From IMG/VR virus record IMGVR_UViG_3300033066_000693, positions 128,001 through 192,000 of that record: 64,000 bases of DNA; one strand, given 5' to 3'. Both the position numbers and the translations under genes were made by a program. Positions 196 to 18,391 of this stretch are shown piece after piece. The notes beneath the pieces were generated by a model, which was not told where the DNA came from, made no database searches, and worked only from the letters and a program-made list of their open reading frames with translations. This DNA is from a virus. Every line of letters starts with the position of its first letter. The first letter of the stretch is position 1.

Positions 196-1452
196 TCAAT
201 CCATCCAATCACTTTGTCCTGCTTTTTTCATCGTCCTATCTGGCTTAGGAGTAAAGTTCTTCACAGCCTCTTGAACCTCAAGACGGTCAAACCCTTCGTC
301 TGCCAACTTACTATGACTGGAACTCGTTTGTGCGGCTCGTTTTACGTTTTCTGGAAGGCTTCCAAAGGACTTCTCTAGACCGTCCGTAACATGCTGCTGC
401 TTGACAAGTTCAATGGCAATACTAATCTTACGGCTAAGAATTTCCTTAGCTTCAAGTAGATTATGATAAACGTCTTTGGCGCTCTGCTCAAGACTTTCAA
501 TTCTTGCAGCATACATCTCAACGTCTCGCATATGGTCATAGATAACGCCGTCTTGTCTAGCCGCAGGCTTCTCGTATGAAACCTTCGCAAGAACGCCTCT
601 CAGCAACTCAACGCCTCGCTTGCATGCGGAGCATTGACTAGTAGCTTGGATCTTTATCTGAACAACTCGATCCAAGTAGTCTTGGATCTTGGTCAGTTTC
701 TCGCCCATTCCTACAAGATCAGTAAGCTCAACATTTGTGCTAACAGAAGAGTTTTTCAGTTCAGCAACAAGCTTGTCAATATCAAGAGGACGACCATTGC
801 TAGTAATGTTGCGAATGAAAGCGCCCTTCTCGTCATAGAAGCGAGAATACATAGGAGCGGGCGGAGTCAGCATCCATCCGTCTGCGTTGGGCTTTTGCTC
901 ATAGATAGGGCCAGCAGCAGTCTCTTGCTCTGAATCTTCAACCTGAACATGCTTTACAGGATTAGGTTGAGACGGAGCGGCGGTTAGCCCCACAACATTA
1001 GGAACTGAGGCAGGCTCAATCCGAATCTTGTCATTGTCCTTATTCGCTTGGACATCGGTTGTATCTTTATTCTCAAAGATTTGTTCCGACACCAGCGGTT
1101 GTACCGCTGGGACGACAGGCTGCTTAGTTGGTATTGACTTCGACAGTATTTCCTCGAAGCTATTGTTCGAGACGACTGCGGGAGCGGGCTGTTCTGGTTG
1201 CTGGGCGACGGTCTGTTGAACATTAGCAGTTACCTCCGGTTGGGCGGTGTACTGTACGTCAGCAGTTGGTACGGCTTGTGCTATCTTGTCGCTCAATTCT
1301 TTAGCCTTTTGCTCAAATGTCGCATTGTCATGCGAAGGAGCTACCTCTGCGTATGCTCCCTCCTGACTCTCTTCGCTCTCGTCTCTGATGTTCGAACCGT
1401 TTTTTGGTACGTCGAATATAGAATCTAGTTGATCAACTATTCCTGAAGACAT
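196..1452 (-). CDS. hypothetical protein with a low-complexity Q/P/V-rich middle region and a coiled-coil-like C-terminal half
   Basis: 418-aa ORF. ATG at 1450-1452 is preceded by an AGGAAGA SD-like motif. No recognisable catalytic motifs. Confidence 0.6.
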   Translation of the reverse strand: MSSGIVDQLDSIFDVPKNGSNIRDESEESQEGAYAEVAPSHDNATFEQKAKELSDKIAQAVPTADVQYTAQPEVTANVQQTVAQQPEQPAPAVVSNNSFEEILSKSIPTKQPVVPAVQPLVSEQIFENKDTTDVQANKDNDKIRIEPASVPNVVGLTAAPSQPNPVKHVQVEDSEQETAAGPIYEQKPNADGWMLTPPAPMYSRFYDEKGAFIRNITSNGRPLDIDKLVAELKNSSVSTNVELTDLVGMGEKLTKIQDYLDRVVQIKIQATSQCSACKRGVELLRGVLAKVSYEKPAARQDGVIYDHMRDVEMYAARIESLEQSAKDVYHNLLEAKEILSRKISIAIELVKQQHVTDGLEKSFGSLPENVKRAAQTSSSHSKLADEGFDRLEVQEAVKNFTPKPDRTMKKAGQSDWMD

Positions 1453-1473: not shown

Positions 1474-1788
1474 TCAAGCAATCGCGTCGTAATCTTTCTT
1501 CTCGTCTGCGGAAAGGCCTTTTCTCGGTAATTCAGGCGCATTCACTATGGCAGCAACCGTATTAAGCTTGTATTCTTCGAATACTTTCTTGGCTGTCTGC
1601 TCGAAATCGTCTGCTACAAGCTTTGTGATTCCGTCGCTCTTAGCTCGCAGAGCCGCTACCGTATCCCATTCAACCTCAATCGAGTGGTCAACAAGGATGT
1701 CCATCGTTTCGTACTTTGCCGTATTGTACTTACGGGTAATGGATTTTCTGACAATCGACTTTCTTACAACTGGCTCGCCCTCTGCCAT
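1474..1788 (-). CDS. hypothetical protein
   Basis: 104-aa ORF in the co-directional array, tightly packed against its neighbours. No recognisable motifs. Confidence 0.5.
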   Translation of the reverse strand: MAEGEPVVRKSIVRKSITRKYNTAKYETMDILVDHSIEVEWDTVAALRAKSDGITKLVADDFEQTAKKVFEEYKLNTVAAIVNAPELPRKGLSADEKKDYDAIA

Positions 1789-1803
1789 GATCTTCCCTTT
1801 CTA

Positions 1804-2247
1804 TTAGGTACCAACTCTTTCGGAGGTTTCTCTTCCGTCTTCGGATATCCACACGAACTCTCCTGCTTCGCCAACAGGAAAGTAATCTCTACAGTTACAG
1901 CAAAATGTTCTGCCATAAAAAGAAGGCGTAGCTGCATAGGTTTCAGCGATAGCCGTTCCCATAGTCGTAGTAGTATTGCATCCGCTATCAAGCTGCTTTT
2001 GCGTCCAGAAACGGCCTACTACAGGCTCTTTTTCAGGGCCATACTCTTCATAGGCAACATAACCTTCGTTCTTATATCGCTCTTGCTCTTCAGCGGTCAA
2101 TGGCCTTGTAGGATTCTGCGGACGAACGCCTACATGCTTATATGTTCTACGAACAGGTCTTATGAACTTACGGTCTTCAGGAACAACAGTCGGATGCCGC
2201 TCATATTGTCCGTCTTCTCTCTTAGAGCCATAATCAAAGCTACTCAT
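1804..2247 (-). CDS. hypothetical Cys-containing protein
   Basis: The ORF track starts at a TTG at 2259. An in-frame ATG at 2245-2247 is preceded by GGAGG with a 5-nt spacer, so it is the likelier true start. Confidence 0.55.
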   Translation of the reverse strand: MSSFDYGSKREDGQYERHPTVVPEDRKFIRPVRRTYKHVGVRPQNPTRPLTAEEQERYKNEGYVAYEEYGPEKEPVVGRFWTQKQLDSGCNTTTTMGTAIAETYAATPSFYGRTFCCNCRDYFPVGEAGEFVWISEDGRETSERVGT

Positions 2248-2305
2248 ATTTGCCTCCAAATAAGCTATTCATACTCGTCTTTTTCTTTACGAGGTTACTC
2301 TATGT

Positions 2306-4291
2306 TCACGCAAAGATATTTCCTGTTTCTACCCCTCGCTTCTTGGCCTTCTTTAGGTCTTCGCGAATGACTTCAAACTCTGCGATAATGGCGTCTTTAC
2401 CTCTGCCTCTACCCGTCTTTGGTCTAAAGAAGCCAGCCTCTACCAGCGCTTCAACCGCCCTCATATCTACAATCTTGGTATCAGTCTTGGCCGCAAAATC
2501 CGCAAGACTTGAATAAGGCTGCTTAGAGACAATCTCATGAGCAGCATTATCGCTCAAACCCTTGCATTTAACCGAAGGACAAATCTGAGACTTGCCAATC
2601 CCTTGAGCGGCGTCTGCTCTTGCGATAATTCGATACTCTAGCTTGCAATCGTTGATATGACGAGGGGCTATGTCTATGTTCATATCCTCTGCCATCTTCT
2701 CAAGAACGCTTACTTTATCATAGTTTGATCTACCGACTTCTACGTTTAGATATGCGGTAACAAACTCTTCTGGGTAGTTAGCCTTGAGATATGCCGTGAT
2801 ATACGAGTTGTAGGCATAGCAACAAGCATGGGCCTTGTTGAAGCCGTAATCGGCAAAGGGCGTGATAACCTTGTCCCAATAGTCAGCCGCTATCTTGCCT
2901 TGAATCCCATTCTTTTCCGCGCCAGAAATAAACTTCTCTCGGTATTTTTGCAACAAATCTCTCTGCTTCTTACCAATGGCCTTAATAACGACATAACCCT
3001 CAGGAATCGAGAAACCAGCTATCGAGTTACAGATAGTCATGACTTGTTCCTGATAAACAAGCAAACCATAAGTCTTCTTCACATAAGGCTCAATGAACTT
3101 CTTGAGAGATGGATGGAAATAGTCCAGCGTCTCTGAGCCATGCTTACGAGCGCAGTATGTTGGAATGGAATCCATCGGACCCGGGCGGTACAAGGCTATA
3201 CCTGCCATGATGTCGTCTATAGAGTCAACTCCCATGTTGACCATCGTTCGCTGCATTCCATGCTCTTCGCATTGGAAGACACCTGTAAGCTTACCGCTCT
3301 TATAGAGCTTGAAAGTCTTAGCGTCGTCCAGCGGCAGATTCTCAATATCGATCTTGATTCCGGGATAGTTCTTTTCTACCTCTTGGCAACAACGGCGAAT
3401 AACAGAAAGCGTGCTAAGAGCCAAGATATCGAACTTGATAAGACCAAGAAACTCTAGGTCATTGTACTCAAACTGAGTTGCATAGGCATACTTTGGACCA
3501 GTCTGGAACTCGTCCGTAGAAAGCATCTTTGTCTGACGAAGAGGCGCTATGCGACCTAGCGGCTCGCTAGATATAACAATACCGGCAGCATGGACTCCAA
3601 AAGTGGATAGTAGTCCCTCGATATTACGAGAATGCTCCAAAATAGCAGGGTATTTATTGATGTAGAACGCAAAGTTTTTACACCACTTAGTAGCGTCTTC
3701 AACGGTCTTAATTGCATGTTCTTGCCCATCTGGACCCTTTACTTTCAGAAATGCACCATACTGCGGCGGAAGAGCAGTTAGGATATCTTCCCCTAGAGCA
3801 TTGGTTGCGGTTTTCCATTCGTCAAATCCTTTGAAGAAGGTTCGCTCCGGGTCAATTGCCTTGACCGCCCGACGAACAAACGACTTCATCTTCAACCCTG
3901 AATATGTACCAATGTTACCAACGTGTTCTCTTCCGTAAGTATCAATGATGTACTTATAGATATCGTCACGATGCTCATAGTCAAAGTCGGAGTCGATATC
4001 GGGGAAACCTTTTCTAGCAAAGGCTCGGCGCTTCTGAAGGAATGTCGAACCGTCTTCTGGCTTCTTCTCGGTCATGCCTAGAGCAAAAGCAGTCCAAGAG
4101 TTGATCTCATTGCGCTGTCCCTTTTTGCCGCCAGAATCCTTCCAAAGCTTATAGAACTTCTCCAAGATAGGCTTGCCGTCAAGTCCCTCAGTAGTTTCCA
4201 TCTTGGCAAGCTCTGCTTGGATGTTATTTAGAAGAGACTTGTCTTGAACAGCCGTCTCTAGTTCTTGCTTCATTTCCTGCAATGTTGCCAT
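2306..4291 (-). CDS. dnaE: DNA polymerase III alpha (DnaE-type) C-terminal fragment: palm catalytic DxD, fingers and HhH
   Basis: The motif FPDIDSDFD...YGREHV aligns with E. coli PDFDVDF...YGRD. Further DnaE matches are ALYRPGPM, YQEQVM and GFNKAHACCYAY...YLKANYPEEF (FNKSHSAAYA...LKAHYPAEF). The HhH region TDTK...VEALVEAGFFRP is also present. The ORF ends after HhH, with no OB or clamp-binding tail. About 95 aa of unassigned N-terminal head precede the palm motif. Confidence 0.9.
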   Translation of the reverse strand: MATLQEMKQELETAVQDKSLLNNIQAELAKMETTEGLDGKPILEKFYKLWKDSGGKKGQRNEINSWTAFALGMTEKKPEDGSTFLQKRRAFARKGFPDIDSDFDYEHRDDIYKYIIDTYGREHVGNIGTYSGLKMKSFVRRAVKAIDPERTFFKGFDEWKTATNALGEDILTALPPQYGAFLKVKGPDGQEHAIKTVEDATKWCKNFAFYINKYPAILEHSRNIEGLLSTFGVHAAGIVISSEPLGRIAPLRQTKMLSTDEFQTGPKYAYATQFEYNDLEFLGLIKFDILALSTLSVIRRCCQEVEKNYPGIKIDIENLPLDDAKTFKLYKSGKLTGVFQCEEHGMQRTMVNMGVDSIDDIMAGIALYRPGPMDSIPTYCARKHGSETLDYFHPSLKKFIEPYVKKTYGLLVYQEQVMTICNSIAGFSIPEGYVVIKAIGKKQRDLLQKYREKFISGAEKNGIQGKIAADYWDKVITPFADYGFNKAHACCYAYNSYITAYLKANYPEEFVTAYLNVEVGRSNYDKVSVLEKMAEDMNIDIAPRHINDCKLEYRIIARADAAQGIGKSQICPSVKCKGLSDNAAHEIVSKQPYSSLADFAAKTDTKIVDMRAVEALVEAGFFRPKTGRGRGKDAIIAEFEVIREDLKKAKKRGVETGNIFA

Positions 4292-4896
4292 TATTTCTCG
4301 TCCCTATAAAACAACCGGGGGAATGCAGCCCCGGTTCCGTATATCCAATAGCCAATCTTGGGATGTCGGCGTATTCCATACGAACCTAGCTCAATTCCAC
4401 TTTGAGTAACAATGTCATAGCTCTTAACTGTTGTACATTGTTCTCTTGGCTCGTCAACTGTTTCTACTACCCGCAGGTTACCAGACAACCCTCTTGTCTC
4501 TCTTGCAAACTCCAAATAGATTTTGGCAAGTGAGATCATCTGCTGAAGAGAACTATCATATGGTTCCTCGTCATTGTAGTAATCAATAAGCTCTACTTTG
4601 AAGAACTGCGCAAAGTGCAATCCGTCATTCCTCAATCCGTCTTGAACTCTATAGCATGGCGTTGCGCAGCAATACTTGCCTGCATGAAAATCAGTAGTAA
4701 GAATCAACTCCATGAACGATTGCTCGCCAGAAGCAACCAGAGTTCCCGGACCCATAAGATCACAATGACCCTTAGGGGCCGTCGTCATCATTGCCTCAAT
4801 ACCTACTACCCAAGGGACATCAATATAATCAAAGTCTTCGTCTGTATAGAACTCAATAGCTTGATGAACTGGTCCATAGAAGTTCATGTAACTCAT
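4291..4896 (-). CDS. class II aminoacyl-tRNA synthetase-like minimal catalytic core (AsnA/EpmA/PheS-alpha-like ligase fold)
   Basis: 201 aa. A motif-2-like segment YRVQDGLRNDGLHFAQFFKVEL carries the conserved Arg and an [HE]F..E signature. A motif-3-like segment GTGAAFPRLFY carries G.G...RL. There is no anticodon-binding domain. Confidence 0.5.
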   Translation of the reverse strand: MSYMNFYGPVHQAIEFYTDEDFDYIDVPWVVGIEAMMTTAPKGHCDLMGPGTLVASGEQSFMELILTTDFHAGKYCCATPCYRVQDGLRNDGLHFAQFFKVELIDYYNDEEPYDSSLQQMISLAKIYLEFARETRGLSGNLRVVETVDEPREQCTTVKSYDIVTQSGIELGSYGIRRHPKIGYWIYGTGAAFPRLFYRDEK

Positions 4897-5204
4897 TTTC
4901 TTGTTCCATCCATAAAAGCAGAATGAGTGGCGTCTGCCATTTTTCTCAGGTCGTCAATGGAAAAAGACGGAAACTGACGTTTCAAATAACCGTCAATAGC
5001 TCCAACAAGATCGGCCAACTCTATAAGGGCCATAAGGCGATTCTGTTGAGCTTCTGCGTCTTGCAGTTCCTCTACTTCCTCTCGGAGCTTGGAACTAAAA
5101 CCGTACTCACCCTTCTGTATCTTCGCTAGATGATAACCCATTATTTTCCTCCGGGAAACAAGATCCCTGTTCTGACTGCTTTGCCCAATCGCCCTTCTTG
5201 ACAA
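4893..5204 (-). CDS. MazG-like all-alpha NTP pyrophosphohydrolase domain protein
   Basis: The sequence LREEVEELQDAEAQ...LIELADLVGAIDGYL resembles the MazG/HisE EExxE...D helix pair. The ORF overlaps the Dam MTase by about 98 nt as drawn. An internal Met at 5141 is a likelier start. Confidence 0.5.
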   Translation of the reverse strand: MSRRAIGQSSQNRDLVSRRKIMGYHLAKIQKGEYGFSSKLREEVEELQDAEAQQNRLMALIELADLVGAIDGYLKRQFPSFSIDDLRKMADATHSAFMDGTRK

Positions 5205-5997
5205 TCAGTATTTCTTGCGCCTTGCTTTTGTTATCTCCACGCTGCATGCTTTTTACAACTCTCTTTTCGTAAATCTTGAACCCTTCGCTTTCGGGGTAGA
5301 GTTTTCGAATAAAGTCGCTGTCATAGTACGAGATAGCGCAACTGCCTTGAATTTGCTTAGCGGCATCAGCTAATCCATTATGGTCGAAGCCATCCTTTTG
5401 ATTAACATGATAGAAGTCTTTTTCTACATTCTCATAAGGAGGGTCTAAGTAAAACAAAGCAGGACCACAATCCCATTTACGGATACATTCCTTATAGTCT
5501 AGATTTTCAAGATAGACATTCCGCAAAAACGCCGCAACAGTTTCAATTAGAGGAGGCAGCTTTGCCCATGTCATACAAATGTTCTCTCCCGTTCGAGAAA
5601 CGCACCATGTTCCGTCTTCTTTTCCAAACATGGATTGACGGTTGTATATGAGATAGTTTCTAGCCCATTCAACTGGGTTTTCTTTCAAGAAGTCCCGCTT
5701 TGTTTCTATGTAGACAACAGCATTCTCTAGCTCTCGCCTGCTATATGGAGTCAAGACTTGAGCCGTAAGGAACTCGTCTCGGTGGTCCCGCAAGACACGA
5801 AAGAAATTCCAAACGTGCCCGTCAAGATCATTGTAGACGAGACGATAATCCGTCGTCTCTGGCTTTGGCATAGCAAAACCAACCGCGAAGCTACCGCCAA
5901 ACGGCTCGCAATAGAGCTTATGAACAGGGAGTAAGCCTTTGATCCATTCTCTAATCTTGACTTTACCTCCTACTCGTTTGATCAAAGTGTCTGCCAT
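5107..5997 (-). CDS. dam: D12-class (Dam-family) N6-adenine DNA methyltransferase
   Basis: The N-terminus IKRVGGKVKIREWI...YCEPFGGSFAVGF matches Dam KWAGGK...EPFVGAGSV (motif I). NYLIYNRQSMFG matches LYLNRYGYNG. The DPPY motif IV lies in FYLDPPYEN. Confidence 0.85.
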   Translation of the reverse strand: MADTLIKRVGGKVKIREWIKGLLPVHKLYCEPFGGSFAVGFAMPKPETTDYRLVYNDLDGHVWNFFRVLRDHRDEFLTAQVLTPYSRRELENAVVYIETKRDFLKENPVEWARNYLIYNRQSMFGKEDGTWCVSRTGENICMTWAKLPPLIETVAAFLRNVYLENLDYKECIRKWDCGPALFYLDPPYENVEKDFYHVNQKDGFDHNGLADAAKQIQGSCAISYYDSDFIRKLYPESEGFKIYEKRVVKSMQRGDNKSKAQEILIVKKGDWAKQSEQGSCFPEENNGLSSSEDTEG

Positions 5998-6503
5998 GTT
6001 TCATGCCCTTTCTTGATATTCCATTTGTCATTGATAAGAGCTATAAAGTATGCCTTATCGACTGGAATTTTTACATACTCTTCTTCCCCGCTAGTTACGT
6101 ACTTATTGGGCTTAAATTCCCAAGGAGAATCATCAAAGTCATTTCTTCTAACGACAATAAAGCTTTTTAGATCTCTATGAAAAAGAACAAAATACCTGAA
6201 GCCGTCATTTTTCTCTTTGTCTTTGCGAGAATGTTTGGTGCTTTTTCTAAAAGGAATGTCCACAGTTGGGTACGGGAAAGAAAGAGCATCAACCCATCCA
6301 GTTTTTTTCATCTCTAAAGAGAAAATATCCCCTTGCAGGATAAGATCCCAATAGTATTTAGATGATAATTCTTCACTGCCTTTTGCTGTAATAATCTCGC
6401 TCTGCAAGAAACCTTGCGATAACAAGAAATCGCTAAAAGCTTTCTTTACCGACTGATCGCAGCTTTCCAGTTCTTTGTGATTACATGGTTTTATGTAGTT
6501 CAA
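5982..6503 (-). CDS. hypothetical protein
   Basis: 173-aa ORF between the Dam MTase and DnaE-N, overlapping each by 4-16 nt. No recognisable motifs. Confidence 0.5.
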   Translation of the reverse strand: MNYIKPCNHKELESCDQSVKKAFSDFLLSQGFLQSEIITAKGSEELSSKYYWDLILQGDIFSLEMKKTGWVDALSFPYPTVDIPFRKSTKHSRKDKEKNDGFRYFVLFHRDLKSFIVVRRNDFDDSPWEFKPNKYVTSGEEEYVKIPVDKAYFIALINDKWNIKKGHETWQTL

Positions 6504-7987
6504 TAGCGGTCAACTCCACCCGGATCTTCCGTAACGTCTCTATCTTCGAACAACTCAGCAACAACTTCGTCTGCCTTCTTAGTTTCAATCTCTCCAAAGA
6601 AATCCTGCTCTTGAACAAAGAACTTGTCATCGAAGCCTAGGAATCTCTCCCAAATCAGGTCATACTTCAATGGGTCTGGTCCATAAGCGATTCCAATAAC
6701 TCGCAACAGAACGCTGGCATATCCTGAGCCTCGACCGCATCCCGTCAGGATGTTGCGCTTCTTCGCCTCTTGCATGTAGTCTCGAACAATCAAGAAGTAC
6801 GTAGCAAAATCGTACTTGTTGTTGTCCCAAGCAACTCGAACGTCCTCAATTTCTTGCTTGAGTCTATCAATATGCGGCTGGCTGCTCTCCCAACCAAGCT
6901 TCTTCATGCCCTCCCACGCAAGATGCTCCATATACTCCATTGGAGTCTTGAACGGAGGCGGAACCTTGTATGGAGGCAGCCGCATGCCTGAAGTCATGTT
7001 CTCATAGATGTTGTTGGCATCAATCTTGTCGGAAACCATTACAGTATTGAACAAGAACTCGGGATTAGAGCCAAAAATCTTCCCCATCTCTTCTGCCGAC
7101 TTGAGATAGAATTCATGATACGGGAAGTGAAGGTGCTTTGGGTCATGCAGACAACGACTGGTCATCATGCACATGAGGAGTTCTTGCGAAAGACCCTGCT
7201 CTTTCTGGCAGTAATGACAATCATTTGTTGCAATGATTGGAACATTCATTTCCTTGCCGAGCTTGATAACGTCTGGAATGATAAGAGCTTCGGCGTCAAT
7301 GCCGTGATACATGACTTCCAAATGGAAATCTTCCTTGAAGATATCCTTGAAGATTCCTACGGCCTTTCGTGCCATGTCAAAGCGATCATGAAGAAGGTTG
7401 GCATTGACAACGCTGCTAAGGCAAGCGGAATTGCAAATCAATCCTTCGCTATGAGCCGCCAAGGTTGGCAAATCAATACGAGGATCAATGTAATAGCCTT
7501 CGGTCCATGCTTTTTGCGAAAGCGTACAGAGGTTCTGCCAACCCTTCCAGTTCTTTGCAATCAGCACCAAGTGACGGTTGCCTCGCCGTCCGTCTGTTTG
7601 CCCTAGAATGGTCTTAGAACCCTCTTTGCGCTGCGTATAGTTGATGGTTCTGTCTTTGGCAAGATAGAACTCGCAACCGCAAATAGGCTTGATATCGAAC
7701 TTCTTGTTGTCTGAACTTCGACACGCATTCATGAACTTGATAGACCCGCCAATGTTACCGTGATCGGTAAGGGCGATAGACTTGAAGCCCATTTCCTTTG
7801 CTCGCTCTGGTAGCGATAACCAAGGCTTCTTGCTCTTGTCTTTTTCAGGGTGCGCTTGGATTCGATTCAGACCGTCAAAAGACGAGTATTCTGAATGATT
7901 GTGGAGATGAACAAAGTCTGCGTTGTTTATGAATCGAGGCATAGGGCTTAGTCGGCATTTCTCCCTCGGGAAGACAGAGAGCCACAC
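6500..7987 (-). CDS. dnaE: DNA polymerase III alpha (DnaE-type) N-terminal fragment: PHP domain and start of palm
   Basis: The PHP motif FVHLHNHSEYSSFDG (HxH...D) is present. GCGRGSGYASVLLRVIGIAYGPDPLKYDLIWERFLG matches E. coli [33 protein letters not shown]. The ORF stops about 45 aa after ERFLG, before the catalytic PDFDxDF motif, which lies in ORF 2306..4291. Confidence 0.9.
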   Translation of the reverse strand: MWLSVFPREKCRLSPMPRFINNADFVHLHNHSEYSSFDGLNRIQAHPEKDKSKKPWLSLPERAKEMGFKSIALTDHGNIGGSIKFMNACRSSDNKKFDIKPICGCEFYLAKDRTINYTQRKEGSKTILGQTDGRRGNRHLVLIAKNWKGWQNLCTLSQKAWTEGYYIDPRIDLPTLAAHSEGLICNSACLSSVVNANLLHDRFDMARKAVGIFKDIFKEDFHLEVMYHGIDAEALIIPDVIKLGKEMNVPIIATNDCHYCQKEQGLSQELLMCMMTSRCLHDPKHLHFPYHEFYLKSAEEMGKIFGSNPEFLFNTVMVSDKIDANNIYENMTSGMRLPPYKVPPPFKTPMEYMEHLAWEGMKKLGWESSQPHIDRLKQEIEDVRVAWDNNKYDFATYFLIVRDYMQEAKKRNILTGCGRGSGYASVLLRVIGIAYGPDPLKYDLIWERFLGFDDKFFVQEQDFFGEIETKKADEVVAELFEDRDVTEDPGGVDRY

Positions 7988-8335
7988 TCAAGCCAAGTCG
8001 AGAATATCGCCTCTTTCCACAACGTCCTTTTTGGTAAACACTTCGGATGGTGAGACAGTTGTGCATACATAATCAAGATACGCAAAGGGGATCTTCCTGA
8101 CTGTCATGCTATGAGCAGGATTGATGACCGAAATATCGAATGTCGTCTCGGCTACCCCGGTTATTCTAACTCTTTCATGAACAGTTGGTACGTCCATAGG
8201 ACTGCTGCGATAGCTTATCGAAGCGTCGGTACGAGAACGCAAAAAAGTACCAAGGATTTCCTTGATGACATTGGGATCGCTTATTACTTCGTCAGCAATC
8301 ACCTTAGTTACAATTTGTTTTCTGACGTATCTCAT
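7988..8335 (-). CDS. hypothetical protein
   Basis: 115-aa ORF in the co-directional array. Confidence 0.45.
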   Translation of the reverse strand: MRYVRKQIVTKVIADEVISDPNVIKEILGTFLRSRTDASISYRSSPMDVPTVHERVRITGVAETTFDISVINPAHSMTVRKIPFAYLDYVCTTVSPSEVFTKKDVVERGDILDLA

Positions 8336-8613
8336 CCGTGCTTATGAGGATCAAACCGTTCATGAATGCCCTTGGTCTTATCTGTTACCCATTTAGGCTT
8401 TGCGCTTCTAATATGATCTCGAACATCTGTACATCGTTCCCAAGCTGGGCGACTATCGTTTATCAATCCCATATTAGAAATGATGTGTCTGATTGGCCTT
8501 CCGTCTTCTGGATGCTTGGTATACTTAGGGTCTGACATCTTCTGCAAGAACTCAACAACTTCTCCTGTAGAATCGCCTTTTTCATTTAGAACTTCGTACT
8601 CGTAGAGAGGCAT
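8332..8613 (-). CDS. hypothetical protein
   Basis: 93-aa ORF with a 4-nt overlap to the downstream gene. Confidence 0.45.
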   Translation of the reverse strand: MPLYEYEVLNEKGDSTGEVVEFLQKMSDPKYTKHPEDGRPIRHIISNMGLINDSRPAWERCTDVRDHIRSAKPKWVTDKTKGIHERFDPHKHG

Positions 8614-8616
8614 TGT

Positions 8617-8841
8617 TTAATCCTTAGTATATCCTACGCACTGAAGAACAATAGACGGATTGTTTATGTTCTTTCTGTACACTTTCCATTGATGTTGTTT
8701 GCCAAAAATCGTAAGCGTTGTTGGCTCAATAGGGTTGCTACAGTCTTTCGTCTGACAAGAGTTACAAAGAGGCTCAACCACTCCCATAGGCCCTACGGGA
8801 AGCTTATCCAAAGGGAATAGTTTTACCTTGTATGTACTCAT
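8617..8841 (-). CDS. small Cys-containing hypothetical protein
   Basis: 74 aa with a CNSCQTKDC cluster. 4-nt overlap with the upstream gene. Confidence 0.4.
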   Translation of the reverse strand: MSTYKVKLFPLDKLPVGPMGVVEPLCNSCQTKDCSNPIEPTTLTIFGKQHQWKVYRKNINNPSIVLQCVGYTKD

Positions 8842-9485
8842 TTTTCGGCTCTACGAATCGAAGCGCCAGCGGTCTGCGCTTTCCTTAGCGCCTTCTCTCT
8901 AGCCGCCATGATATCTTGAACTTCTTCTTGCGAAAGCTCAACTTGGTCGGCGCTTGAAGACAAACTTTGAGCAGGAACCATTCCCTCAATCCCGTTGCTA
9001 ATATCTTCCATACGCTTTGCTTCTTTCTTTACAAGATCTTCAGGAAGGAATGGCTGTTCTGCTGGCGAATCGTCTTCAAGATCTACTTCAACAGCCTCTA
9101 CAGGACTCTTACGATTACCGACCTTAAGAGGGTTTACAACGGCTTGAGGATTAGGGCGGGTATTTACAACTCTAGGCTTTGGAAGAGGCTTCCTTGCCTG
9201 AGTCTCGGTTGCCTTTGTCATTGTATTCGTTATGTTTGGCAAACGATTTGGCATTGGCAAAGTCTTCTTACCCTGTAGAATGCCCTGCTCAACCAAGAAC
9301 TCGGAAACTTCCGAGAACATAGTAACTGGGAAGCTTACTGCTGGTTCGCCCTCGTCGTCCAATAGAGCGATAGTTGGGCCATACTCGTCTGTATGGAAGA
9401 ATCGCAACGAAATGGCATATGCCGTTCCAGTTGGGGACTCATATTCAAACTCGAAATCAACTTTTTTGTTGGACTTGATCGCCAT
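8838..9485 (-). CDS. hypothetical protein
   Basis: 215-aa ORF with an acidic N-terminal half and a basic C-terminus. Confidence 0.5.
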   Translation of the reverse strand: MAIKSNKKVDFEFEYESPTGTAYAISLRFFHTDEYGPTIALLDDEGEPAVSFPVTMFSEVSEFLVEQGILQGKKTLPMPNRLPNITNTMTKATETQARKPLPKPRVVNTRPNPQAVVNPLKVGNRKSPVEAVEVDLEDDSPAEQPFLPEDLVKKEAKRMEDISNGIEGMVPAQSLSSSADQVELSQEEVQDIMAAREKALRKAQTAGASIRRAEK

Positions 9486-9675: not shown

Positions 9676-10151
9676 ATGAGTTCGATTCTTTCGTCTTCAT
9701 CCTCGTCCGTAGTAGGATCATCGTCAAACTGCAAGTCTTTTCTTGCTCCATACTTCTTTTCTAGGTACTCGGAATCAACAATGTAAGTATCCCATTCCTT
9801 GCGCCAGAATGGCAGCCAAGAGTCGGCAATAGACGGCAGAGGCTCTGGGGTTTTCCACCCAGATTCATTGCACCAGCAAGTAAGACACCTAATGTCTGTA
9901 TTGTGTATGTCTTTTGAAGATGGTCGGTAGTCAGCTATATAGACCTTGCCATTCCAATAGAAATGGCATTCTAACATAGCAAAACCAAATGGACTTCGTA
10001 TAGTAACTCTTGAGCTAACCATCCACTCATTGCGCTTAGAACTTGCGCCTGTAGAATATGTATGAACATTCATTATGCGACAAACTTTTTTGTACGAACC
10101 GTTTGCCTGCAAAAGAGTTAGATCTGTAAACTGTATCTCAAAATCCATCAA
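9672..10151 (-). CDS. hypothetical protein with a Cys/His cluster and an acidic tail
   Basis: 159 aa containing RCLTCWC and an acidic C-terminus DDDPTTDEDEDE. Confidence 0.5.
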   Translation of the reverse strand: MMDFEIQFTDLTLLQANGSYKKVCRIMNVHTYSTGASSKRNEWMVSSRVTIRSPFGFAMLECHFYWNGKVYIADYRPSSKDIHNTDIRCLTCWCNESGWKTPEPLPSIADSWLPFWRKEWDTYIVDSEYLEKKYGARKDLQFDDDPTTDEDEDERIELI

Positions 10152-11008
10152 AAAACCTCGTTCTCAACTACTTCCTTAGGTATTTCTGCCTTGCTTTCCT
10201 TCAATCTTTGAGATCTTGGCACGTAAGGTTCGAAGATGTTGGCAATGTTGTTTATCCTATCCCGAGCGTATTTAACATCGCCTTCTGAGTTATCTATGCC
10301 TATGTAGTTTCGGCCAGTCATCTTAGCAACTGCGCCGGTTGTACCAGTCCCCATAAATGGGTCTAGGATAGTATTGCCTCGATAGCTAAATAGCTTCAAG
10401 ATACGAGTAACAAGCTCTTCTGGATATGGCGCAGGATGTCCATTTCTGTTCTTAGTTTCTGGCTGAATGAACCATGTACTAAACGTCCATTCTTGGAACT
10501 CTTTAGGGGTCATGTCGGAAAGCTCGCTATCGCCTTCCAAGCCAAACTCGTCTTTAGACCAAACAAGAACATATTCATGAGTTCTTCTAAGCGCTGGATT
10601 TGAGCATGAACACCAAGAACCGAATGCCGTAGCTCTTCCAGACCAGTTCTGCTTGTACCAGCAAATTTCTACGCGAAACTTCAAGCCTATTTCTCGCCCT
10701 ATGTTTACTAGGTCGGCATAAATAGGACGCATGTATTCTTCGCCGTCTTGCAGATTACGCACAGAGTCTATGTTGATGGCTATTCTGCCTCCTGAAACAA
10801 GAACTCGCTTGCATTCAATGAGAATGTCTTTCAGCCATGCAAGGTAATGAGCATAAGGATCGTTATCCTTTCGATTCTTGTATTTAATGTTGATGTTGTA
10901 AGGAGGCGAAGTGCATACTAAGTGTACGGTTTCGTCTGGGATCTTTCGAAGGCCATCAAGAACGTCGTCAAACATGATGGTATTGAGTAGCTGATCTATG
11001 GGTATCAT
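10148..11008 (-). CDS. beta-class DNA methyltransferase (N4-cytosine/N6-adenine, PF01555-like)
   Basis: Motif IV SPPY (LVCTSPPYNI) lies N-terminal and motif I C-terminal (ILDPFMGTGTTGAVA), the beta-class order. Confidence 0.85.
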   Translation of the reverse strand: MIPIDQLLNTIMFDDVLDGLRKIPDETVHLVCTSPPYNINIKYKNRKDNDPYAHYLAWLKDILIECKRVLVSGGRIAINIDSVRNLQDGEEYMRPIYADLVNIGREIGLKFRVEICWYKQNWSGRATAFGSWCSCSNPALRRTHEYVLVWSKDEFGLEGDSELSDMTPKEFQEWTFSTWFIQPETKNRNGHPAPYPEELVTRILKLFSYRGNTILDPFMGTGTTGAVAKMTGRNYIGIDNSEGDVKYARDRINNIANIFEPYVPRSQRLKESKAEIPKEVVENEVF

Positions 11009-11778
11009 TTGCTTTCCTTTGAATCGAATATCGTGGTAAGCTGACTTACCCGTTCCTGCGCGATATCTATGGCTTGTTTACTCTTGTCGGAACCTATGGA
11101 GTATCTTCCTAATGAAACACCAGTCTCTATCAATGATCCACTTCCGCAGAACGGATCTAGAATCCTGCTTTCTGCATTACTCCATATTTCTACGACCCTT
11201 TGCATGAGCTTTCTAGGCTTCTGCGTTGCATAGCCTGTTTTCTCTGGCTCATTCCTACAAAGAGCAGGGATATCCGTCCACCAATCCTCTAAAAGCTTGC
11301 CCTTTTGCTCGTATTTTTCCCAAGGAATCTTCTCTTTAGACCAAGCCGCTGCCCCTCCAACATTCATCTTTGTCTTATAAGGAATGCGAGGCTGGTTAAA
11401 GATATAGTCGCCTACTCCGTACCAAAGAATCGTATTATGTTTTCTAGGGAGCCATTTCTTAGCACTAGCTGGGTTGCTAAAGCACCATATGATCTCGTTT
11501 TTGAAGCTATCCCTACCAAACATTCCGTCCATCATTACCTTGAGATAATGAACAGCCTTATAGTCAACATGGACAAGGATATTGGCGCTGGGCTTCATTA
11601 GCTTTTGAAGGTTCTCCAACCGTTCCTTCATATAGGCTAGAAACTCGTCCAGAGTCTCGCCTTCGCCATAATACTCGTCCTCTTTCTTAGAGCTATATGG
11701 TGGGTCCAAATAGATAAGATCAACCGGATCGATAACTAGGTCTTTACAATCTGTAAGATGTAGCTCGTACTTATTCAT
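11005..11778 (-). CDS. beta-class N6-adenine DNA methyltransferase
   Basis: DPPY (LIYLDPPYSS) lies N-terminal and motif I C-terminal (ILDPFCGSGSLIETG). Confidence 0.85.
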   Translation of the reverse strand: MNKYELHLTDCKDLVIDPVDLIYLDPPYSSKKEDEYYGEGETLDEFLAYMKERLENLQKLMKPSANILVHVDYKAVHYLKVMMDGMFGRDSFKNEIIWCFSNPASAKKWLPRKHNTILWYGVGDYIFNQPRIPYKTKMNVGGAAAWSKEKIPWEKYEQKGKLLEDWWTDIPALCRNEPEKTGYATQKPRKLMQRVVEIWSNAESRILDPFCGSGSLIETGVSLGRYSIGSDKSKQAIDIAQERVSQLTTIFDSKESK

Positions 11779-12403
11779 AACTTCTGAAATCTTTGGCGCT
11801 CTGTATTTCCTCTTGCTTCTGCTTTTCTAGGAACATCTGATACCTATATCCGGTTCTCTTTGGAAGAGCGTCAGATAGCTTTTCTAGTTCCTCAAGATTC
11901 TCGATAAGAACCAAGCTATCTGCGAGAGCAAATACCTTCTCGGCAATCTGAATCTCATTGGGGTCAAAGTTTACTTTGCGCAGAAAATCATGCATATGGA
12001 CGCTAATAAACAATGAAGAAGCGAGGAGGTCTTCTCCCTTGTCTTCCTTGCCCGGGTCATTGATGTGAAGCAGTATCTCTCGAATGACTGATTCTAAAAC
12101 GTCGTCTATGTTGATATTCAGACCAGCCGAAAGTCTTTGAATAGTCTCCTTGATAGAGATCTGTTCGTAGGAAGCTATGAACTGGATAATAGAGCCTGCG
12201 CTCTTGCAGCCGTAGCAATAGTAATCCTGCCGAGTAGGTTTGTCATAGACGAAGAATGACGGCGTTTTGTCAGACTTATGAGACGGCAATGGACAACGGT
12301 ACTTGTATCTACCTCCGTCAAAAGACGACCATTGAACTCCCTTAGAAGAAAGGTAGTCTGTTATCTTGTTGGCCTTGATAATCGTGTCAAGAATAATGCT
12401 CAT
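11771..12403 (-). CDS. DnaG-type CHC2 zinc-finger protein (primase N-terminal domain only, no TOPRIM)
   Basis: YRCPLPSHKSDKTPSFFVY...YYCYGCKSAGSIIQF matches the CHC2 consensus CPFH.EKTPSF.V...Y.CFGCG.GG. No E...DxD TOPRIM motif occurs in the 210 aa. Confidence 0.7.
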   Translation of the reverse strand: MSIILDTIIKANKITDYLSSKGVQWSSFDGGRYKYRCPLPSHKSDKTPSFFVYDKPTRQDYYCYGCKSAGSIIQFIASYEQISIKETIQRLSAGLNINIDDVLESVIREILLHINDPGKEDKGEDLLASSLFISVHMHDFLRKVNFDPNEIQIAEKVFALADSLVLIENLEELEKLSDALPKRTGYRYQMFLEKQKQEEIQSAKDFRSYE

Positions 12404-13986
12404 AGTTCAAAACCCAAATCGTCTGTACTTTGACTGGCTTTCTTTGCAATCTTCGGCTTTTCCTTGGGCGTTATCATGGGCTTTGGCGGCTCGTCGTCAA
12501 AGGCCAAATCAATATCAGGATTGGGCGACGGAGCAGACTCGCCTCGTCGCAGGACTTCCGAAGCGTCCGGGTCATTATCTGCCCAACTAGCGTCTACAAA
12601 TGCGCTTATCTTGCCAATCTTGGGGTATACGTCTAGGGTTGCTTTAGATTGATTATGATGCGGTCCAAACATGGTTGAACCATATCTGGACTTGACGCAG
12701 AATAGGTAAAGCTTTTCTTCTGACTGTTCAGGATGTCTTACTTGAACATAGATGTTATCAGCGTCAGCGGAGAAGTCATGAGAACCTCTCAAAGCGTCGG
12801 AGCCTACAGATTGCTTGCCTTCTTTCTGGTTGCGTAGAGACTTGATAGCCTCTCGATTTAGCTGCACCGCTGAGAGTACAGCGAATCCCATCTTCCTTCC
12901 AAGCTGTCGCAAGTCTTTGCACATCTGTCCGTACCAGCTATGCTCTGCTAGCTTTTGGTACCAAGGCTCTGGGCTAAGAATGGAGATATAGTCAATGACA
13001 ACCAATCGAACCTTGAAGAAGTGCTTTCGCTTTTCTAGCTCGGCGCGAATCTTCGAGACTGTCATTCTCTCTTGGGCGTCTAGAATGGCAAACTTCGAGC
13101 TTATTTGCTTGAAATCTTCGGCAGCTTTCTTTACTCTAGCCTTCTCATCAGCGGTCAGTAAATTTGGCTTTGCAAGCTTCGAGGAATCGATCTCCGCCTC
13201 TCTGGAAATGATACGCTGCATAAGACGATCCTTGGGCATTTCCAAGGATACGTACAGAACATTTTCTCCTGATTGCTTGCATACATTCAGGGAGATATTG
13301 ATCATCGTAGCAGACTTGAATCCACCTACGTCAGCAACGATAAGAGTTAGAGAGCCGGGGTCCAAGCCAATAGGCATGGTTTCATCAAAAGGCAATATGC
13401 CAGTCTGCAAAACCTTCTTAGGATTGAGAGCTTCTTTCTCTAACTGGTCATACCAATCTGGACCGTAATCGTCAACGTTCACCCATGTAGCGGCATTGTT
13501 CTCGTCCGCGCTAGAAACAAGTATGTTTAGATCGTCAGCTATATCTCTAACAGCGCTGACATAATCCTTGTTCTTGTTTGTATTGAAGCGATCAAAAAAC
13601 TCTCCGCTCTTTCTCTTTATGTAATACTCTCTGACCTTACGGCAAATGAGAGGAAAATCCTGAGGGTCTACTTTATCTAGATTGGTAATTAGCTGAAAGT
13701 TTCGCTTCTCTGTTTGCTGAGCAAACTTAGCGCTTTCGATCTCGCTACCAGTCCATTTTTTGTAGTCTCCATTGGCGGCGGCGCGAGCTATAAAATCAAG
13801 GTAATAGTTTTCTGTAAACTTTTCTGAATCTTGATGAGATTGTTCTATGCCATAGATAAACGGGCGATACTTGCTTTCAAAGTACGCAGGCCCCATTTGT
13901 TCCGCAAGAAACTCTGGAATAAGTTCGTTGCGATTTATTACTAGATGCAGTAGTTTTTCTTGAGCTTCAAGTTCTGTTATTGCCAT
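12400..13986 (-). CDS. dnaB: DnaB-family replicative DNA helicase
   Basis: Walker A lies in LTLIVADVGGFKSATMIN. A Walker B/H2-like LVVIDYISIL is present. N-terminal domain plus RecA-like C-domain architecture. ATG at 13986 is preceded by GGGGGA. Confidence 0.85.
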   Translation of the reverse strand: MAITELEAQEKLLHLVINRNELIPEFLAEQMGPAYFESKYRPFIYGIEQSHQDSEKFTENYYLDFIARAAANGDYKKWTGSEIESAKFAQQTEKRNFQLITNLDKVDPQDFPLICRKVREYYIKRKSGEFFDRFNTNKNKDYVSAVRDIADDLNILVSSADENNAATWVNVDDYGPDWYDQLEKEALNPKKVLQTGILPFDETMPIGLDPGSLTLIVADVGGFKSATMINISLNVCKQSGENVLYVSLEMPKDRLMQRIISREAEIDSSKLAKPNLLTADEKARVKKAAEDFKQISSKFAILDAQERMTVSKIRAELEKRKHFFKVRLVVIDYISILSPEPWYQKLAEHSWYGQMCKDLRQLGRKMGFAVLSAVQLNREAIKSLRNQKEGKQSVGSDALRGSHDFSADADNIYVQVRHPEQSEEKLYLFCVKSRYGSTMFGPHHNQSKATLDVYPKIGKISAFVDASWADNDPDASEVLRRGESAPSPNPDIDLAFDDEPPKPMITPKEKPKIAKKASQSTDDLGFEL

Positions 13987-14889
13987 TCAATCCCCCGCTT
14001 TTATCAGAAAGGTGTTCTTAGAAGTTACCATCTTCTGGAAACTATAACCGAGGCTATCGGTATAATCTTTAGCGAGAGCATCGAAGTCACAGCACAATAT
14101 CGTTGGCTGCCGATTCTCAATTCGTGTCATCAGAAAATCGTCAAACAATGTAACAAAGTTCTGATGATTGAAGTCGGTTTCATTCAAAGGTAAACTTACA
14201 TCGTCAATCGCCAACCAATCATACTCTTTGAGCGAGCTTGCTCTTTCTGTTTTCTGTCTTAGGTCTTGTCTTAGAGTTTGATAAGACGTTAGGGCGTATG
14301 TATCTGCTCGATTCGTAGTATAAAGCCTTCGCCAGATGGCTTCCTTCAAGACCAAACAAGCAATGAGAGTCTTACCAGTAGGAACGGTCTGCGTAGACGG
14401 CATGCCCTCTTTCTTGAGGCGAAACGGATTGCCATGAATGATAAGATTAGTACCCTCGTAGAACCTAAGGTCCATCTTAGAAATCTTGTTGTAGTCTTCT
14501 CTGCTAGTAGCATTAGAACTATCGCTGTCTCCAAAGAGATACGACTTGAGAGAAGACTTGATAGACTCTACTGTTTTGTCGCTCCAAACTCGCAGATCCT
14601 CTCCCTGCTTAGTCTTGACCAATCCTCGAACATGGTTAATGGTCTTTTCTCTATACTCAGGAGGAATGACATATTCAATATGCCCTCTTGCGTCGGCAAC
14701 CTTTCGGCAGCGACATTGATCGGGCATTTGGCATTGGTCATTCCCCTTGTACCAAGGGCAGGCTATCGCTTCGCCTGTTTCTTTGTTGGTGCCGAAAGTT
14801 GAATAATTGCGATATCGGAAATGACGGATAAATGAGCTTAGTTCTGACATATTCTCTTCTCGACCCAAAAAAATCAATGACCCTAACAA
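13987..14889 (-). CDS. P-loop NTPase, putative DnaC/IstB-like helicase loader with a Cys-rich N-terminus
   Basis: The P-loop TVPTGKTLIA resembles PGTGKTHLA. The Walker B WLAIDDV resembles LLIIDD. An N-terminal CPWYKGNDQCQMPDQCRC segment is present. The gene lies immediately downstream of the helicase gene. Confidence 0.5.
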   Translation of the reverse strand: MLGSLIFLGREENMSELSSFIRHFRYRNYSTFGTNKETGEAIACPWYKGNDQCQMPDQCRCRKVADARGHIEYVIPPEYREKTINHVRGLVKTKQGEDLRVWSDKTVESIKSSLKSYLFGDSDSSNATSREDYNKISKMDLRFYEGTNLIIHGNPFRLKKEGMPSTQTVPTGKTLIACLVLKEAIWRRLYTTNRADTYALTSYQTLRQDLRQKTERASSLKEYDWLAIDDVSLPLNETDFNHQNFVTLFDDFLMTRIENRQPTILCCDFDALAKDYTDSLGYSFQKMVTSKNTFLIKAGD

Positions 14890-17895: not shown

Positions 17896-18391
17896 TAGTG
17901 GCTTCTTTAATAGGCTTCAATATCACAAAAATCTCACGATCCGCAACCTTTAGATCGTCCCATTTAGCGATATTGCGCAAATCAGCCACGTTCTCTTCGA
18001 GCATCTTTTTTGCATGTTCTTTGAATGCTCGTTCTCTTCCTTTAAGCTCCACACCAAACTTGACTATGCACTTCTTTTCCAGCATAGTTCGCACTTTATT
18101 CTTCTTGATGTCAATATCATGCTGATGCTCTTTTAGAACGAACATCATTTCTTTTGTCTTCACTGTCTTCTGCGCCGCCTTCTTAGAGGCTTCAAACTTC
18201 ATCTTGCCAACATCGCCCCACTTGCAGAGCGGTATCCCTTTTTCAGTCTTTGCAACCTGAATAAGGTCTAAGCCCTTTTCCTTTGCCTGAGAAATAGCCA
18301 ATCGCTTGACAACTTCTGCTCTCTGCCCGTCCTGACCAATCACTACTACAGTATGACCGTAGATCTCATCGTTTGCTAGTATCTTGTTCAC
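17861..18391 (-). CDS. infC: translation initiation factor IF-3
   Basis: The protein is collinear with bacterial IF3 over its full length. EIYGHTVVVIGQDGQ...AKEKGLDLIQVAKTEKGIPLCKWGDVGKMKFE aligns with EIRAQEVRLTGLEGE...[31 protein letters not shown]. The C-domain segment KFGVELKGRERAF...REIFVILKP aligns with RFRGREMAH...RQMIMVLAP. The start is a GTG at 18389-18391 preceded by AAGGAG with an 8-nt spacer. Confidence 0.85.
   Translation of the reverse strand: MNKILANDEIYGHTVVVIGQDGQRAEVVKRLAISQAKEKGLDLIQVAKTEKGIPLCKWGDVGKMKFEASKKAAQKTVKTKEMMFVLKEHQHDIDIKKNKVRTMLEKKCIVKFGVELKGRERAFKEHAKKMLEENVADLRNIAKWDDLKVADREIFVILKPIKEATNVESTEAKPTG

Follow-up and report, generated by a model that had tools for sequence, protein, structure and literature searches.

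A DnaE-type replicative polymerase encoded as two polypeptides in a lineage of uncultured huge phages

Results

The Polymerase Locus

The DNA under study corresponds to positions 128,001 to 192,000 of the IMG/VR virus record IMGVR_UViG_3300033066_000693, a stretch of 64 kb that we call the window and whose own coordinates are used throughout. Its G+C content is 43.5%, and 40 of its 41 long open reading frames (ORFs) lie on the minus strand. Six co-oriented ORFs of that strand, spanning 2306..7987, encode the N-terminal and C-terminal parts of a DnaE-type replicative DNA polymerase (hereafter N-half and C-half) and, between them, a 2.2-kb cassette of four other genes (Table 1). The stop/start junctions of this six-gene run overlap or abut everywhere (ATTGA, 16 nt, 35 nt, ATGA and TAATG). 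The identical gene order was found in three independent assemblies (JGI 3300045318, JGI 3300045315 and Logan SRR23702538), and therefore the layout is not a misassembly.

Genes in the vicinity of the polymerase encode DnaB, a DnaG zinc-ribbon protein, several DNA methyltransferases, an intein-bearing AAA+ ATPase and a helicase, and the ORFs of the window reach 3,246 codons. An identical copy of the C-half protein occurs on contigs of up to 258 kb, and relatives were detected on viral contigs from IMG/VR that reach 548 kb. Near-identical DNA was not found in GenBank phages, in which all tblastn matches were less than 60% identical and the best ones listed, mostly to contiguous polymerases, reached 30-37%. 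Scanning 185,579 bacterial and archaeal species genomes for a host or a prophage gave 20 confirmed loci, the best of them 36% identical. The window represents the replication module of a huge, uncultured phage.

Table 1. Features of the split polymerase locus, in coordinates of the 64-kb window. NTP, nucleoside triphosphate; HhH, helix-hairpin-helix.
Feature	Position	Strand	Remarks
DnaE N-half	6500..7942	-	480 aa from ATG 7942; PHP and NTP-binding (GS-motif) palm subdomain, up to ...LIWERFLGF
GS motif GCGRGSGYAS	6713..6742	-	Pol-beta-type, triphosphate-binding; N-half only
N-half tail, 43 aa	6503..6631	-	DDKxF[IV]xExDF, variable acidic linker, R[DE]Vx[DE]DxGGVDRY-COOH
GGVDRY	6503..6520	-	tail motif at the C-terminal end of the N-half
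173-aa ORF (cargo)	5982..6503	-	TTG start overlaps the N-half stop codon
D12-class (Dam-like) N6-adenine DNA methyltransferase (cargo)	5107..5997	-	Pfam MethyltransfD12 1.4e-22; TIGR00571 5.9e-20
MazG-like (all-alpha NTP pyrophosphohydrolase-like), 82 aa (cargo)	4893..5141	-	phrog_6408 1.3e-31
Minimal class-II aminoacyl-tRNA-synthetase-like catalytic core, 201 aa (cargo)	4291..4896	-	phrog_4806 3.5e-28
DnaE C-half, 661 aa	2306..4291	-	head, catalytic strand, rest of palm, thumb, fingers, HhH, C-terminal motif
C-half head, residues 1-87	4031..4291	-	helical; degenerate second NTP-binding subdomain, GRGS replaced by G..N.INS
Head similarity core, residues 18-81	4049..4240	-	hhalign
Catalytic aspartates D98-I-D100	3992..4000	-	equivalent to Taq D463/D465
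Third catalytic aspartate D288 in KFDIL	3428..3430	-	alignment to Taq DnaE
C-terminal GVETGNIFA	2309..2335	-	beta-clamp-binding-like; extreme C-terminus

The Two Halves of the Enzyme

The reading frame of the N-half is open back to a GTG at 7987 (495 aa). An original prediction, made by a model from the sequence of the window, took this codon as the start, but gene callers and homologues favour the ATG at 7942, which is most likely the true one; the same prediction's assignment of a PHP domain and of the palm as far as ERFLG to this ORF was correct. Pfam recognizes PHP (E=3.9e-37) and positions 1-97 of the 260 of DNA_pol3_alpha, and the protein covers positions 40-435 of PHROG 405 (DNA polymerase). 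In phmmer comparisons with the PDB, it aligns to the DnaE of Thermus aquaticus (Taq), Mycobacterium tuberculosis (Mtb) and Escherichia coli as far as ...ERFL (about residue 455 in Taq). Nine PHP positions, H29, H31, D38, H76, E106, H139, C189, D256 and H258 in the 495-aa numbering, are invariant among 40 N-half homologues. From their pattern (HxH, D, H, E, H, C, DxH) we take them to be metal ligands and, because all nine are intact, the N-half is probably an active PHP proofreading exonuclease. In the same 40 proteins, residues G416, G418, R419, G420, S421, G422 and S425 of the GS motif are invariant. Across the GS segment the N-half is 49% identical to bacterial DnaE, with GRGSG and ERFL invariant (hhalign against the canonical bacterial segment, P=1.5e-31).

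The C-half takes up where the N-half ends. It matches Pfam DNA_pol3_alpha from position 68 to 260, DNA_pol3_finger (1.5e-49) and HHH_6 (2e-8), and it covers positions 439-944 of PHROG 405; therefore the two halves are adjacent in this profile. In phmmer comparisons with the PDB it matches Taq DnaE (E=8e-87), in which residues 462-468, the site of the catalytic DxD, align with PDIDSDF. The triphosphate-contacting arginine R93 (FAR) lies just upstream of D98 and D100, and D98, D100, D288, R88, R89 and R93 are invariant in 73 C-halves. The GS motif and the three aspartates are complete only when both chains are taken together. Pfam, PHROG 405 (435/439) and the PDB alignments thus bear out the predicted break in the palm, which separates the GS/ERFL helices from the DxD strand. 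Two polypeptides are to be expected; the ORFs lie 2.2 kb apart, and in most of the clade the enzyme is likewise not a single chain.

At the C-half's opposite end, the predicted absence of the OB fold was confirmed, and the tau-binding C-terminal domain is absent too: PF01336 gave no match, and the protein ends about 35 residues past the HhH. The bacterial matches found with a fused relative do carry PF01336. The further claim that the clamp-binding end is missing is however doubtful, as 106 of 116 C-halves terminate in ...KKG[VL]xSx[DN][ILM]F ([DNSEQ][LIMV]F, within the last 6 residues), an ending also present in the fused and headless relatives described below. We liken this end to the QxD[LM]F beta-clamp motif (QADMF in E. 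coli alpha), and it is a speculative possibility, by this analogy, that the DxF motif binds the sliding clamp.

The N-half closes with an acidic tail. Its GGVDRY ending is present in 85 of 120 N-half homologues, the others stopping soon after ...DFGF, and was not found in any fused or headless relative; within the window the motif occurs only once. It is a matter of speculation that this tail tethers the halves or recruits another replisome protein.

The Split Across Relatives

The same cut point recurs in the roughly 120 closest homologues of each half and in 31 IMG/VR loci. The 120 best N-half homologues (down to about 50% identity) measure 405-502 aa, or more only through inteins, and all are without the DxD strand; PHP is missing from 119 of the 120 best homologues of the C-half. 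In the loci for which both halves were placed, about 30 of 34, the N-half always precedes the C-half on the same strand, with conserved flanking synteny. The spacing between them varies from an 8-nt overlap (locus L013) through 14 nt (L001/L010, Tara contigs of about 480-500 kb), 42 nt (L024) and several hundred nt up to 2.9 kb; relatives with halves 14-64 nt apart were also seen. As the same cut, without any intervening gene, is seen in relatives at 50-63% identity (L001/L010, L013, L024), the split long predates the cassette. Hundreds of homologues also share conserved termini, with GGVDRY immediately before the stop codon of the N-half and M..IK.EIL from the start of the C-half. The split is common to hundreds of related uncultured phages, and the four intervening genes are later passengers, not its cause.

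In relatives the polymerase also carries LAGLIDADG/Hint inteins at several further sites, namely near residue 105 of the N-half (P0008/L008) and near residues 234-260 (L016, L021, L029, L032), 410 (L032) and 487 (L016, L024, L027, L028, L031) of the C-half. At least one true split intein was detected, since P0163 and P0164 start with an IntC piece ending in ...ILVHN and followed by CHAAG; some phages therefore make the enzyme from three genes.

Contiguous Relatives and the Direction of Evolution

A search with the fused homologue P0220 gave two kinds of single-chain relatives. In the fused kind (about 1,090-1,117 aa), the head of the C-half is an in-frame insertion between ERFLGF..DFGF and RRxFARxGFPDID. 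The headless kind (about 991-998 aa) reads ERFLAFK..E..GKRVFARPGFPDID and keeps only the NTP-binding copy of the N-half type. The viral loci include fused forms (L020, L022/23 and L026) and a headless one (L028). Contiguous relatives had been expected to delimit the insertion of the cassette; they delimit instead an in-frame palm insertion of about 95 aa, the head, and the cut lies inside or beside this insertion.

In a neighbour-joining tree built on 883 shared columns of the polymerase, bootstrap support was 100% for the phage clade, 95% for the main split clade, which includes the window, and 96% for a second split clade. The split, fused and headless forms were each non-monophyletic (0%). 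Since the GGVDRY tail is shared by the two split clades, it is more economical to assume that the split arose once and was followed by re-fusions or deletions than to assume repeated fission. The insertion being in frame in some relatives and absent in others, with the gene cut there in most, the split is a heritable state of long standing in this polymerase lineage, and one that is apparently reversible.

The Head of the C-half

The head, which the original prediction had regarded as novel and left unassigned, has the consensus ...EL..M...EGLDGK..L..FY.IWK...GK.G..N.INSWTAY.LGMT.KKP.G.FLP.RRAFAR.GFP, running directly into DIDSDF. Comparison of the head profile with the canonical bacterial DnaE segment by hhalign, the DxD anchor being excluded, gave a probability of 92.9% (P=3.6e-7) and a score of 42.1 over 63 columns, against 17.1 for the reversed control and a maximum of 21.9 for 30 column-shuffled controls. 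Head residues 18-81 are colinear with ...RL..EL.vI..mGF.gYFLIVwDFI..A...gI.VGPGRGSAAGSLVsY.LGIT..DPL. The homology emerged only in this targeted profile-profile test: no significant DnaE match was obtained with the head-only profile against the PDB or with 39 head sequences against Pfam, and a direct profile comparison of the head with the N-half was insignificant (E=0.11).

Residues N61, P78, R88 and R89 of the head are invariant and N64 and S65 are conserved in at least 90% of members, all of which lack the GRGS motif. A search with the head in 1.84 billion cluster representatives gave 40 matches at E<=0.001, by far the most with the head at the N-terminus and three, fused forms, with the head clearly inside the protein. 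The matches classifiable by id or length belong to the clade as C-halves or fused forms, many others being short, unclassified fragments; the weakest match, P0390 (1674 aa, 11 stretches), appears unrelated. Judged by profile similarity, the head is thus a degenerate internal duplicate of the NTP-binding palm subdomain. As the N-half ends with the authentic subdomain and the C-half starts with the degenerate copy, the two halves overlap in homology.

Structure Models

The naturally fused P0220 was modelled with AlphaFold2 (AF2) from a 121-sequence alignment (pLDDT 95.2, pTM 0.91), and Foldseek matched the model to Mtb, Taq and E. coli DnaE with TM values of 0.7-0.86. Its sole interior dip in confidence (73-77) is located at residues 430-450, where the split relatives end and begin. 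The head is predicted as four helices in the same order as those of the authentic subdomain, flanked by short strands at 421-424 on the N side and at 533-536, the RRAFAR equivalent, on the C side. When the C-half of the window was modelled alone (pLDDT 88), the helical head stayed at 87-93, and residues 81-100, the RRAFAR segment beside the DxD strand, dropped to 60-74 with loss of the strand. From these models we infer that the head would be an autonomous subdomain and that the segment beside the catalytic strand would be ordered by contact with the N-half.

The Intervening Genes

The first assignments of a class-II aminoacyl-tRNA synthetase-like (aaRS-like) protein, a MazG-like protein and a Dam methyltransferase to the cassette were sound, except that the MazG-like protein had to be corrected to the length in Table 1; its Pfam match to PRA-PH (0.0047) falls below the curated cutoff. 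A profile of five aaRS-like homologues matches the catalytic core of SerRS (E=3.6e-6) and, more weakly, AspRS, and the invariant residues include SGEQSF, PC, KxELI, LGSYG and GxWxYGxG..PR. This gene is in tandem in L004 (13043..13630 and 13643..14293), where the copies are 48% and 39% identical to that of the window. The 173-aa ORF, rightly listed without identity, gave no match in Pfam, PHROG, NCBIfam or PADLOC; it has a weak homologue at the same position in L007 and is absent from L005 and from all relatives with adjacent halves. PADLOC and NCBIfam searches of the cassette returned methyltransferase matches only. No homing endonuclease, transposase or integrase was matched among the four ORFs in Pfam, PHROG, NCBIfam or PADLOC; flanking repeats were not searched.

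In the sub-clade of the window (70-77% identity), the Dam gene stands in the gap of every member (L003-L009, L029), and in that of no other lineage. The MazG-like gene is found in L003/4, L005 and L007 only, and this gene, the aaRS-like gene (in one or two copies) and an unassigned ORF are each present in some members of the sub-clade and absent from others. Other lineages carry an S-adenosylmethionine (SAM) methyltransferase, ClpP, a dCMP deaminase, a zinc-finger protein or small unmatched ORFs at this place. The gap between the halves is a recurrent landing site for unrelated cargo genes.

The gap of one lineage holds a 345-aa protein (L018 11484..12521) with repeated Cys-rich zinc-finger units, for which Pfam supports zinc fingers only; by eye, its C-terminal stretch (LELDFYFPD..AVEVSG..H) looks like a Vsr/DUF559 endonuclease.

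Neighbouring Genes

Two ORFs downstream of the C-half, 196..1452 and 1474..1788 (minus strand; 418 and 104 aa), occupy this position in nearly every relative, down to about 45% polymerase identity. Neither has a Pfam or PHROG match, and both are candidate accessory replisome subunits. A PHROG scan of ten flanking ORFs gave nothing informative.

The primase is also in pieces. A stand-alone gene for a CHC2 zinc ribbon (DnaG N-terminal; 11771..12403, minus strand) adjoins that of DnaB, while Toprim has a 261-aa gene of its own, located downstream of RecA both in this phage (L035 13395..14180) and in relatives (L001). The 999-aa AAA+ ATPase (14896..17895, minus strand) has a Pfam Intein_splicing match at residues 386-809 between two AAA segments, and its homologue in L003 likewise carries an intein. 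Four DNA methyltransferase genes, two of the D12 and two of the N6_N4 class, lie within 20 kb of the replication module on the minus strand (the one of the cassette, 5107..5997, and 10148..11008, 11005..11778 and 19329..20426). A 176-aa ORF (17861..18391, minus strand) matches phrog_9787 ('translation initiation factor', E=1.4e-17). Further along the minus strand, four giant ORFs follow one another, at 27279..37019, 37027..41376, 41380..45954 and 45954..54218 (3,246, 1,449, 1,524 and 2,754 aa).

Discussion

A Probable Two-Chain DnaE

We consider it quite probable that the locus encodes a DnaE made as two polypeptides, most likely with a composite active site formed non-covalently, and that the split is old and was not made by the cassette. 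The N-half carries PHP and the palm's NTP-binding GS subdomain, and the C-half the three catalytic aspartates, the triphosphate arginine, the thumb, the fingers, the HhH and the clamp-binding-like motif. Because neither half has a complete active site, the two chains most likely come together, without covalent linkage, as one DnaE, an obligate two-subunit enzyme whose catalytic centre is composite. The cut lies at the N-terminal edge of the clade-specific helical insertion, the internal duplicate; the short gap later served as a landing site for translationally coupled cargo, and most split forms have gained the acidic GGVDRY tail on the N-half.

Several points weigh against this proposal. The binding of the two chains to each other and their joint activity are things that we infer from how the active site is divided. 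Likewise, the packing of the head and the pairing of strands 421-424 and 533-536 are suggested by predicted secondary structure and model confidence, and the structural model is that of a naturally fused relative, 49-52% identical, and not of the pair encoded in the window. No residues outside the GGVDRY tail, in either half, co-vary with it, and the partner of the tail may lie outside the polymerase. The evolutionary direction depends on the basal placement of the fused lineages with a head, supported at only 57-67%. Finally, the C-half holds a degenerate NTP-binding copy of its own, so that a self-sufficient C-half is compatible with the sequence.

This last point leads to the most serious alternative, in which the C-half is a complete core that uses its head, the N-half being an epsilon-like PHP proofreading subunit whose palm fragment serves for docking only. 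Such an arrangement would agree with the colinearity of the head with the whole NTP-binding subdomain, with its strong conservation (N61, P78, R88 and R89; N64 and S65) and with its confident predicted folding on its own. However, GRGS has been lost from every head while GRGSG and ERFL remain invariant in the N-half, the headless contiguous relatives dispense with the head and retain the N-half-type copy only, and AF2 predicts the fused form as a single, confident DnaE fold. We thus regard a self-sufficient C-half as unlikely.

According to the original prediction, a contiguous dnaE was broken by the 2.2-kb four-gene cassette, and the tail and the head were new, arising with or after the insertion. 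The cassette does sit exactly between the halves, translationally coupled to both, and its content differs among close relatives as that of mobile cargo would. Nevertheless, the cut is clade-wide, and relatives have overlapping halves, halves spaced by 14-64 nt or other genes in the gap; those at 50-63% identity show it with nothing in between. Moreover, the tail and the head are conserved in lineages that lack the cassette, the head is also found in unsplit relatives, and the four ORFs gave no match to a homing endonuclease, a transposase or an integrase, flanking repeats not having been searched. We therefore hold a cassette-made split to be very improbable and return to the old, clade-wide split as the preferred explanation.

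Ligation of the halves by a cryptic or atypical split intein, composed of the tail and the head with Ser425, Asn64 and Ser65 as nucleophiles, appears hardly credible. These three residues are invariant or nearly so, a junction of ...GRGSGYA with SWTAFALGMT... would, in our own reading, restore a canonical DnaE sequence, and the gene family often carries inteins, split ones among them. But neither half has a Hint or intein match in Pfam, which agrees with the predicted absence of intein hallmarks at the junction, although PF14890 was found in the AAA gene of the window. In addition, the putative intein is predicted as all-helical instead of a beta-rich Hint fold, its N-terminal part would include the canonical and invariant LLWERFL helix of DnaE, the penultimate His is absent, and the fused relatives retain the entire segment within a confidently modelled DnaE. 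An artefact or a decaying gene (misassembly, frameshift, pseudogene, or a single protein obtained by recoding or through an intron), for which the metagenomic source and the few single-ORF relatives (P0220, L020, L022, L026) could be cited, is scarcely to be believed given the same layout in three assemblies, termini conserved to the stop and from the start in hundreds of homologues, invariant catalytic residues, the absence of a recoding route, and 2.2 kb fully occupied by four overlapping ORFs with no Rfam intron or ribozyme match at E<=1 in 1500..9000, which also disposes of the spliced intron once envisaged there.

Comparison With Known Split Polymerases

Textbooks present the catalytic subunit of replicative C-family polymerases as a single chain. 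In the literature that we searched, the exceptions are intein-spliced dnaE genes and one minimal phage module without PHP. The protein studied here has the PHP, palm, fingers and HhH of a DnaE-type polymerase and departs from that type in lacking the OB/tau domain and in not being a single polypeptide.

A close case is that of group 2.2 jumbo phages, whose split minimal DNA polymerase III alpha consists of an NTP-binding and a Mg2+/template-binding part without inteins (Iyer et al., 2021, PMC7824862). The junction between NTP-binding and Mg2+-binding parts is the same, both occur in jumbo phages, and reconstitution of one enzyme, proposed for theirs (PMC7824862), is proposed here too. However, the group 2.2 version is minimal, with no PHP or other Pol III domains, is encoded at distant loci and accompanies a family-B polymerase (PMC7824862), whereas, comparing by description, the present enzyme is a near-full DnaE (PHP, palm, thumb, fingers and HhH) with co-oriented halves 0-2.9 kb apart and a cut beside a duplication. 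No family-B polymerase was seen among the scanned ORFs of the window, a scan that left out the four giant ORFs.

A similar cut is known from another family. The B-family polymerase of the chimallivirus PhiKZ is formed by DNAP-N and DNAP-C, which make a stable and active 1:1 complex (Basu et al., 2026 preprint, PMC13648687). It is likewise cut inside a large helical palm insertion, to which one subunit contributes its C-terminal ~50 residues and the other its N-terminal ~98, with catalytic carboxylates on different chains (PMC13648687). It differs in family and fold (B, not C), in an insertion without detectable relatives and in genes that are not adjacent (PMC13648687).

In T4-like phages (cases cited in PMC2677866), gp43 is split, NrdA is split by the homing endonuclease mobE, and the products reassociate without splicing. 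As here, essential replication genes form two ORFs 0.5-3 kb apart, but those splits are phylogenetically recent and associated with an inserted homing-endonuclease gene (PMC2677866). The present one is deep and clade-wide, and the four intervening ORFs gave no match to the HNH, GIY-YIG, LAGLIDADG or Vsr-like families. The split DnaE of cyanobacteria and metagenomic 'fractured genes' with split inteins and a free-standing endonuclease (Dassa et al., 2009, PMC2677866) also involve dnaE in two pieces, fractured dnaE loci coming from marine and lake metagenomes, and relatives of our polymerase carry such split inteins at other sites (P0163/P0164). Those pieces are however ligated by protein trans-splicing at different sites (PMC2677866), whereas our junction has no Hint domain or splicing blocks. 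The DnaE of Phage G-type (group 3.2) jumbo phages, with an N-terminal PHP, is a single host-like protein (PMC7824862); it resembles ours as a PHP-bearing replicative polymerase of the largest phages, and no split or palm duplication is reported for it. PF07733 is the marker of the marine jumbo-phage cluster PGC_A (PMC9123017).

Thus, split phage polymerases (T4-like gp43, PhiKZ, minimal Pol III alpha) and intein-split dnaE were already known (PMC2677866, PMC7824862, PMC13648687). In the literature searched, we found no near-complete, PHP-bearing DnaE split without inteins across a whole huge-phage lineage, no cut at an internal duplication of the NTP-binding subdomain, no three-state series of headless, inserted and split forms, and no seam of this kind used as a slot for cargo. 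The finding is solid, widespread and experimentally tractable; it is not a new principle.

Implications

The lineage is large and environmentally widespread, in oceans and lakes, with contigs of up to about 550 kb. The inference that a cassette broke the gene, though attractive, is corrected, which matters for annotation, as the halves now appear there as "DNA polymerase III subunit alpha" two times over or as "PHP domain protein"; the space between the halves is identified as a recurrent cargo site. GGVDRY-COOH and the C-terminal clamp-like DxF are also handles for finding the rest of an uncharacterised replisome. The natural uncut relatives, with and without the insertion, provide a comparative series for studying how fission is tolerated, what joins the pieces and whether assembly acts as a control.

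We further put forward, as a tentative idea that may well prove wrong, that duplication of the NTP-binding subdomain created a redundant surface seam where the chain could be cut and re-joined, the head and the GGVDRY tail acting as an assembly or regulatory latch and the gap as a privileged slot for cargo. If so, polymerase activity would depend on the joining of a PHP/NTP-binding subunit with a catalytic subunit, and genes in the gap would be co-expressed with an essential enzyme and hard to lose. The headless, inserted and split forms would then constitute the first natural and reversible fission series for a C-family polymerase.

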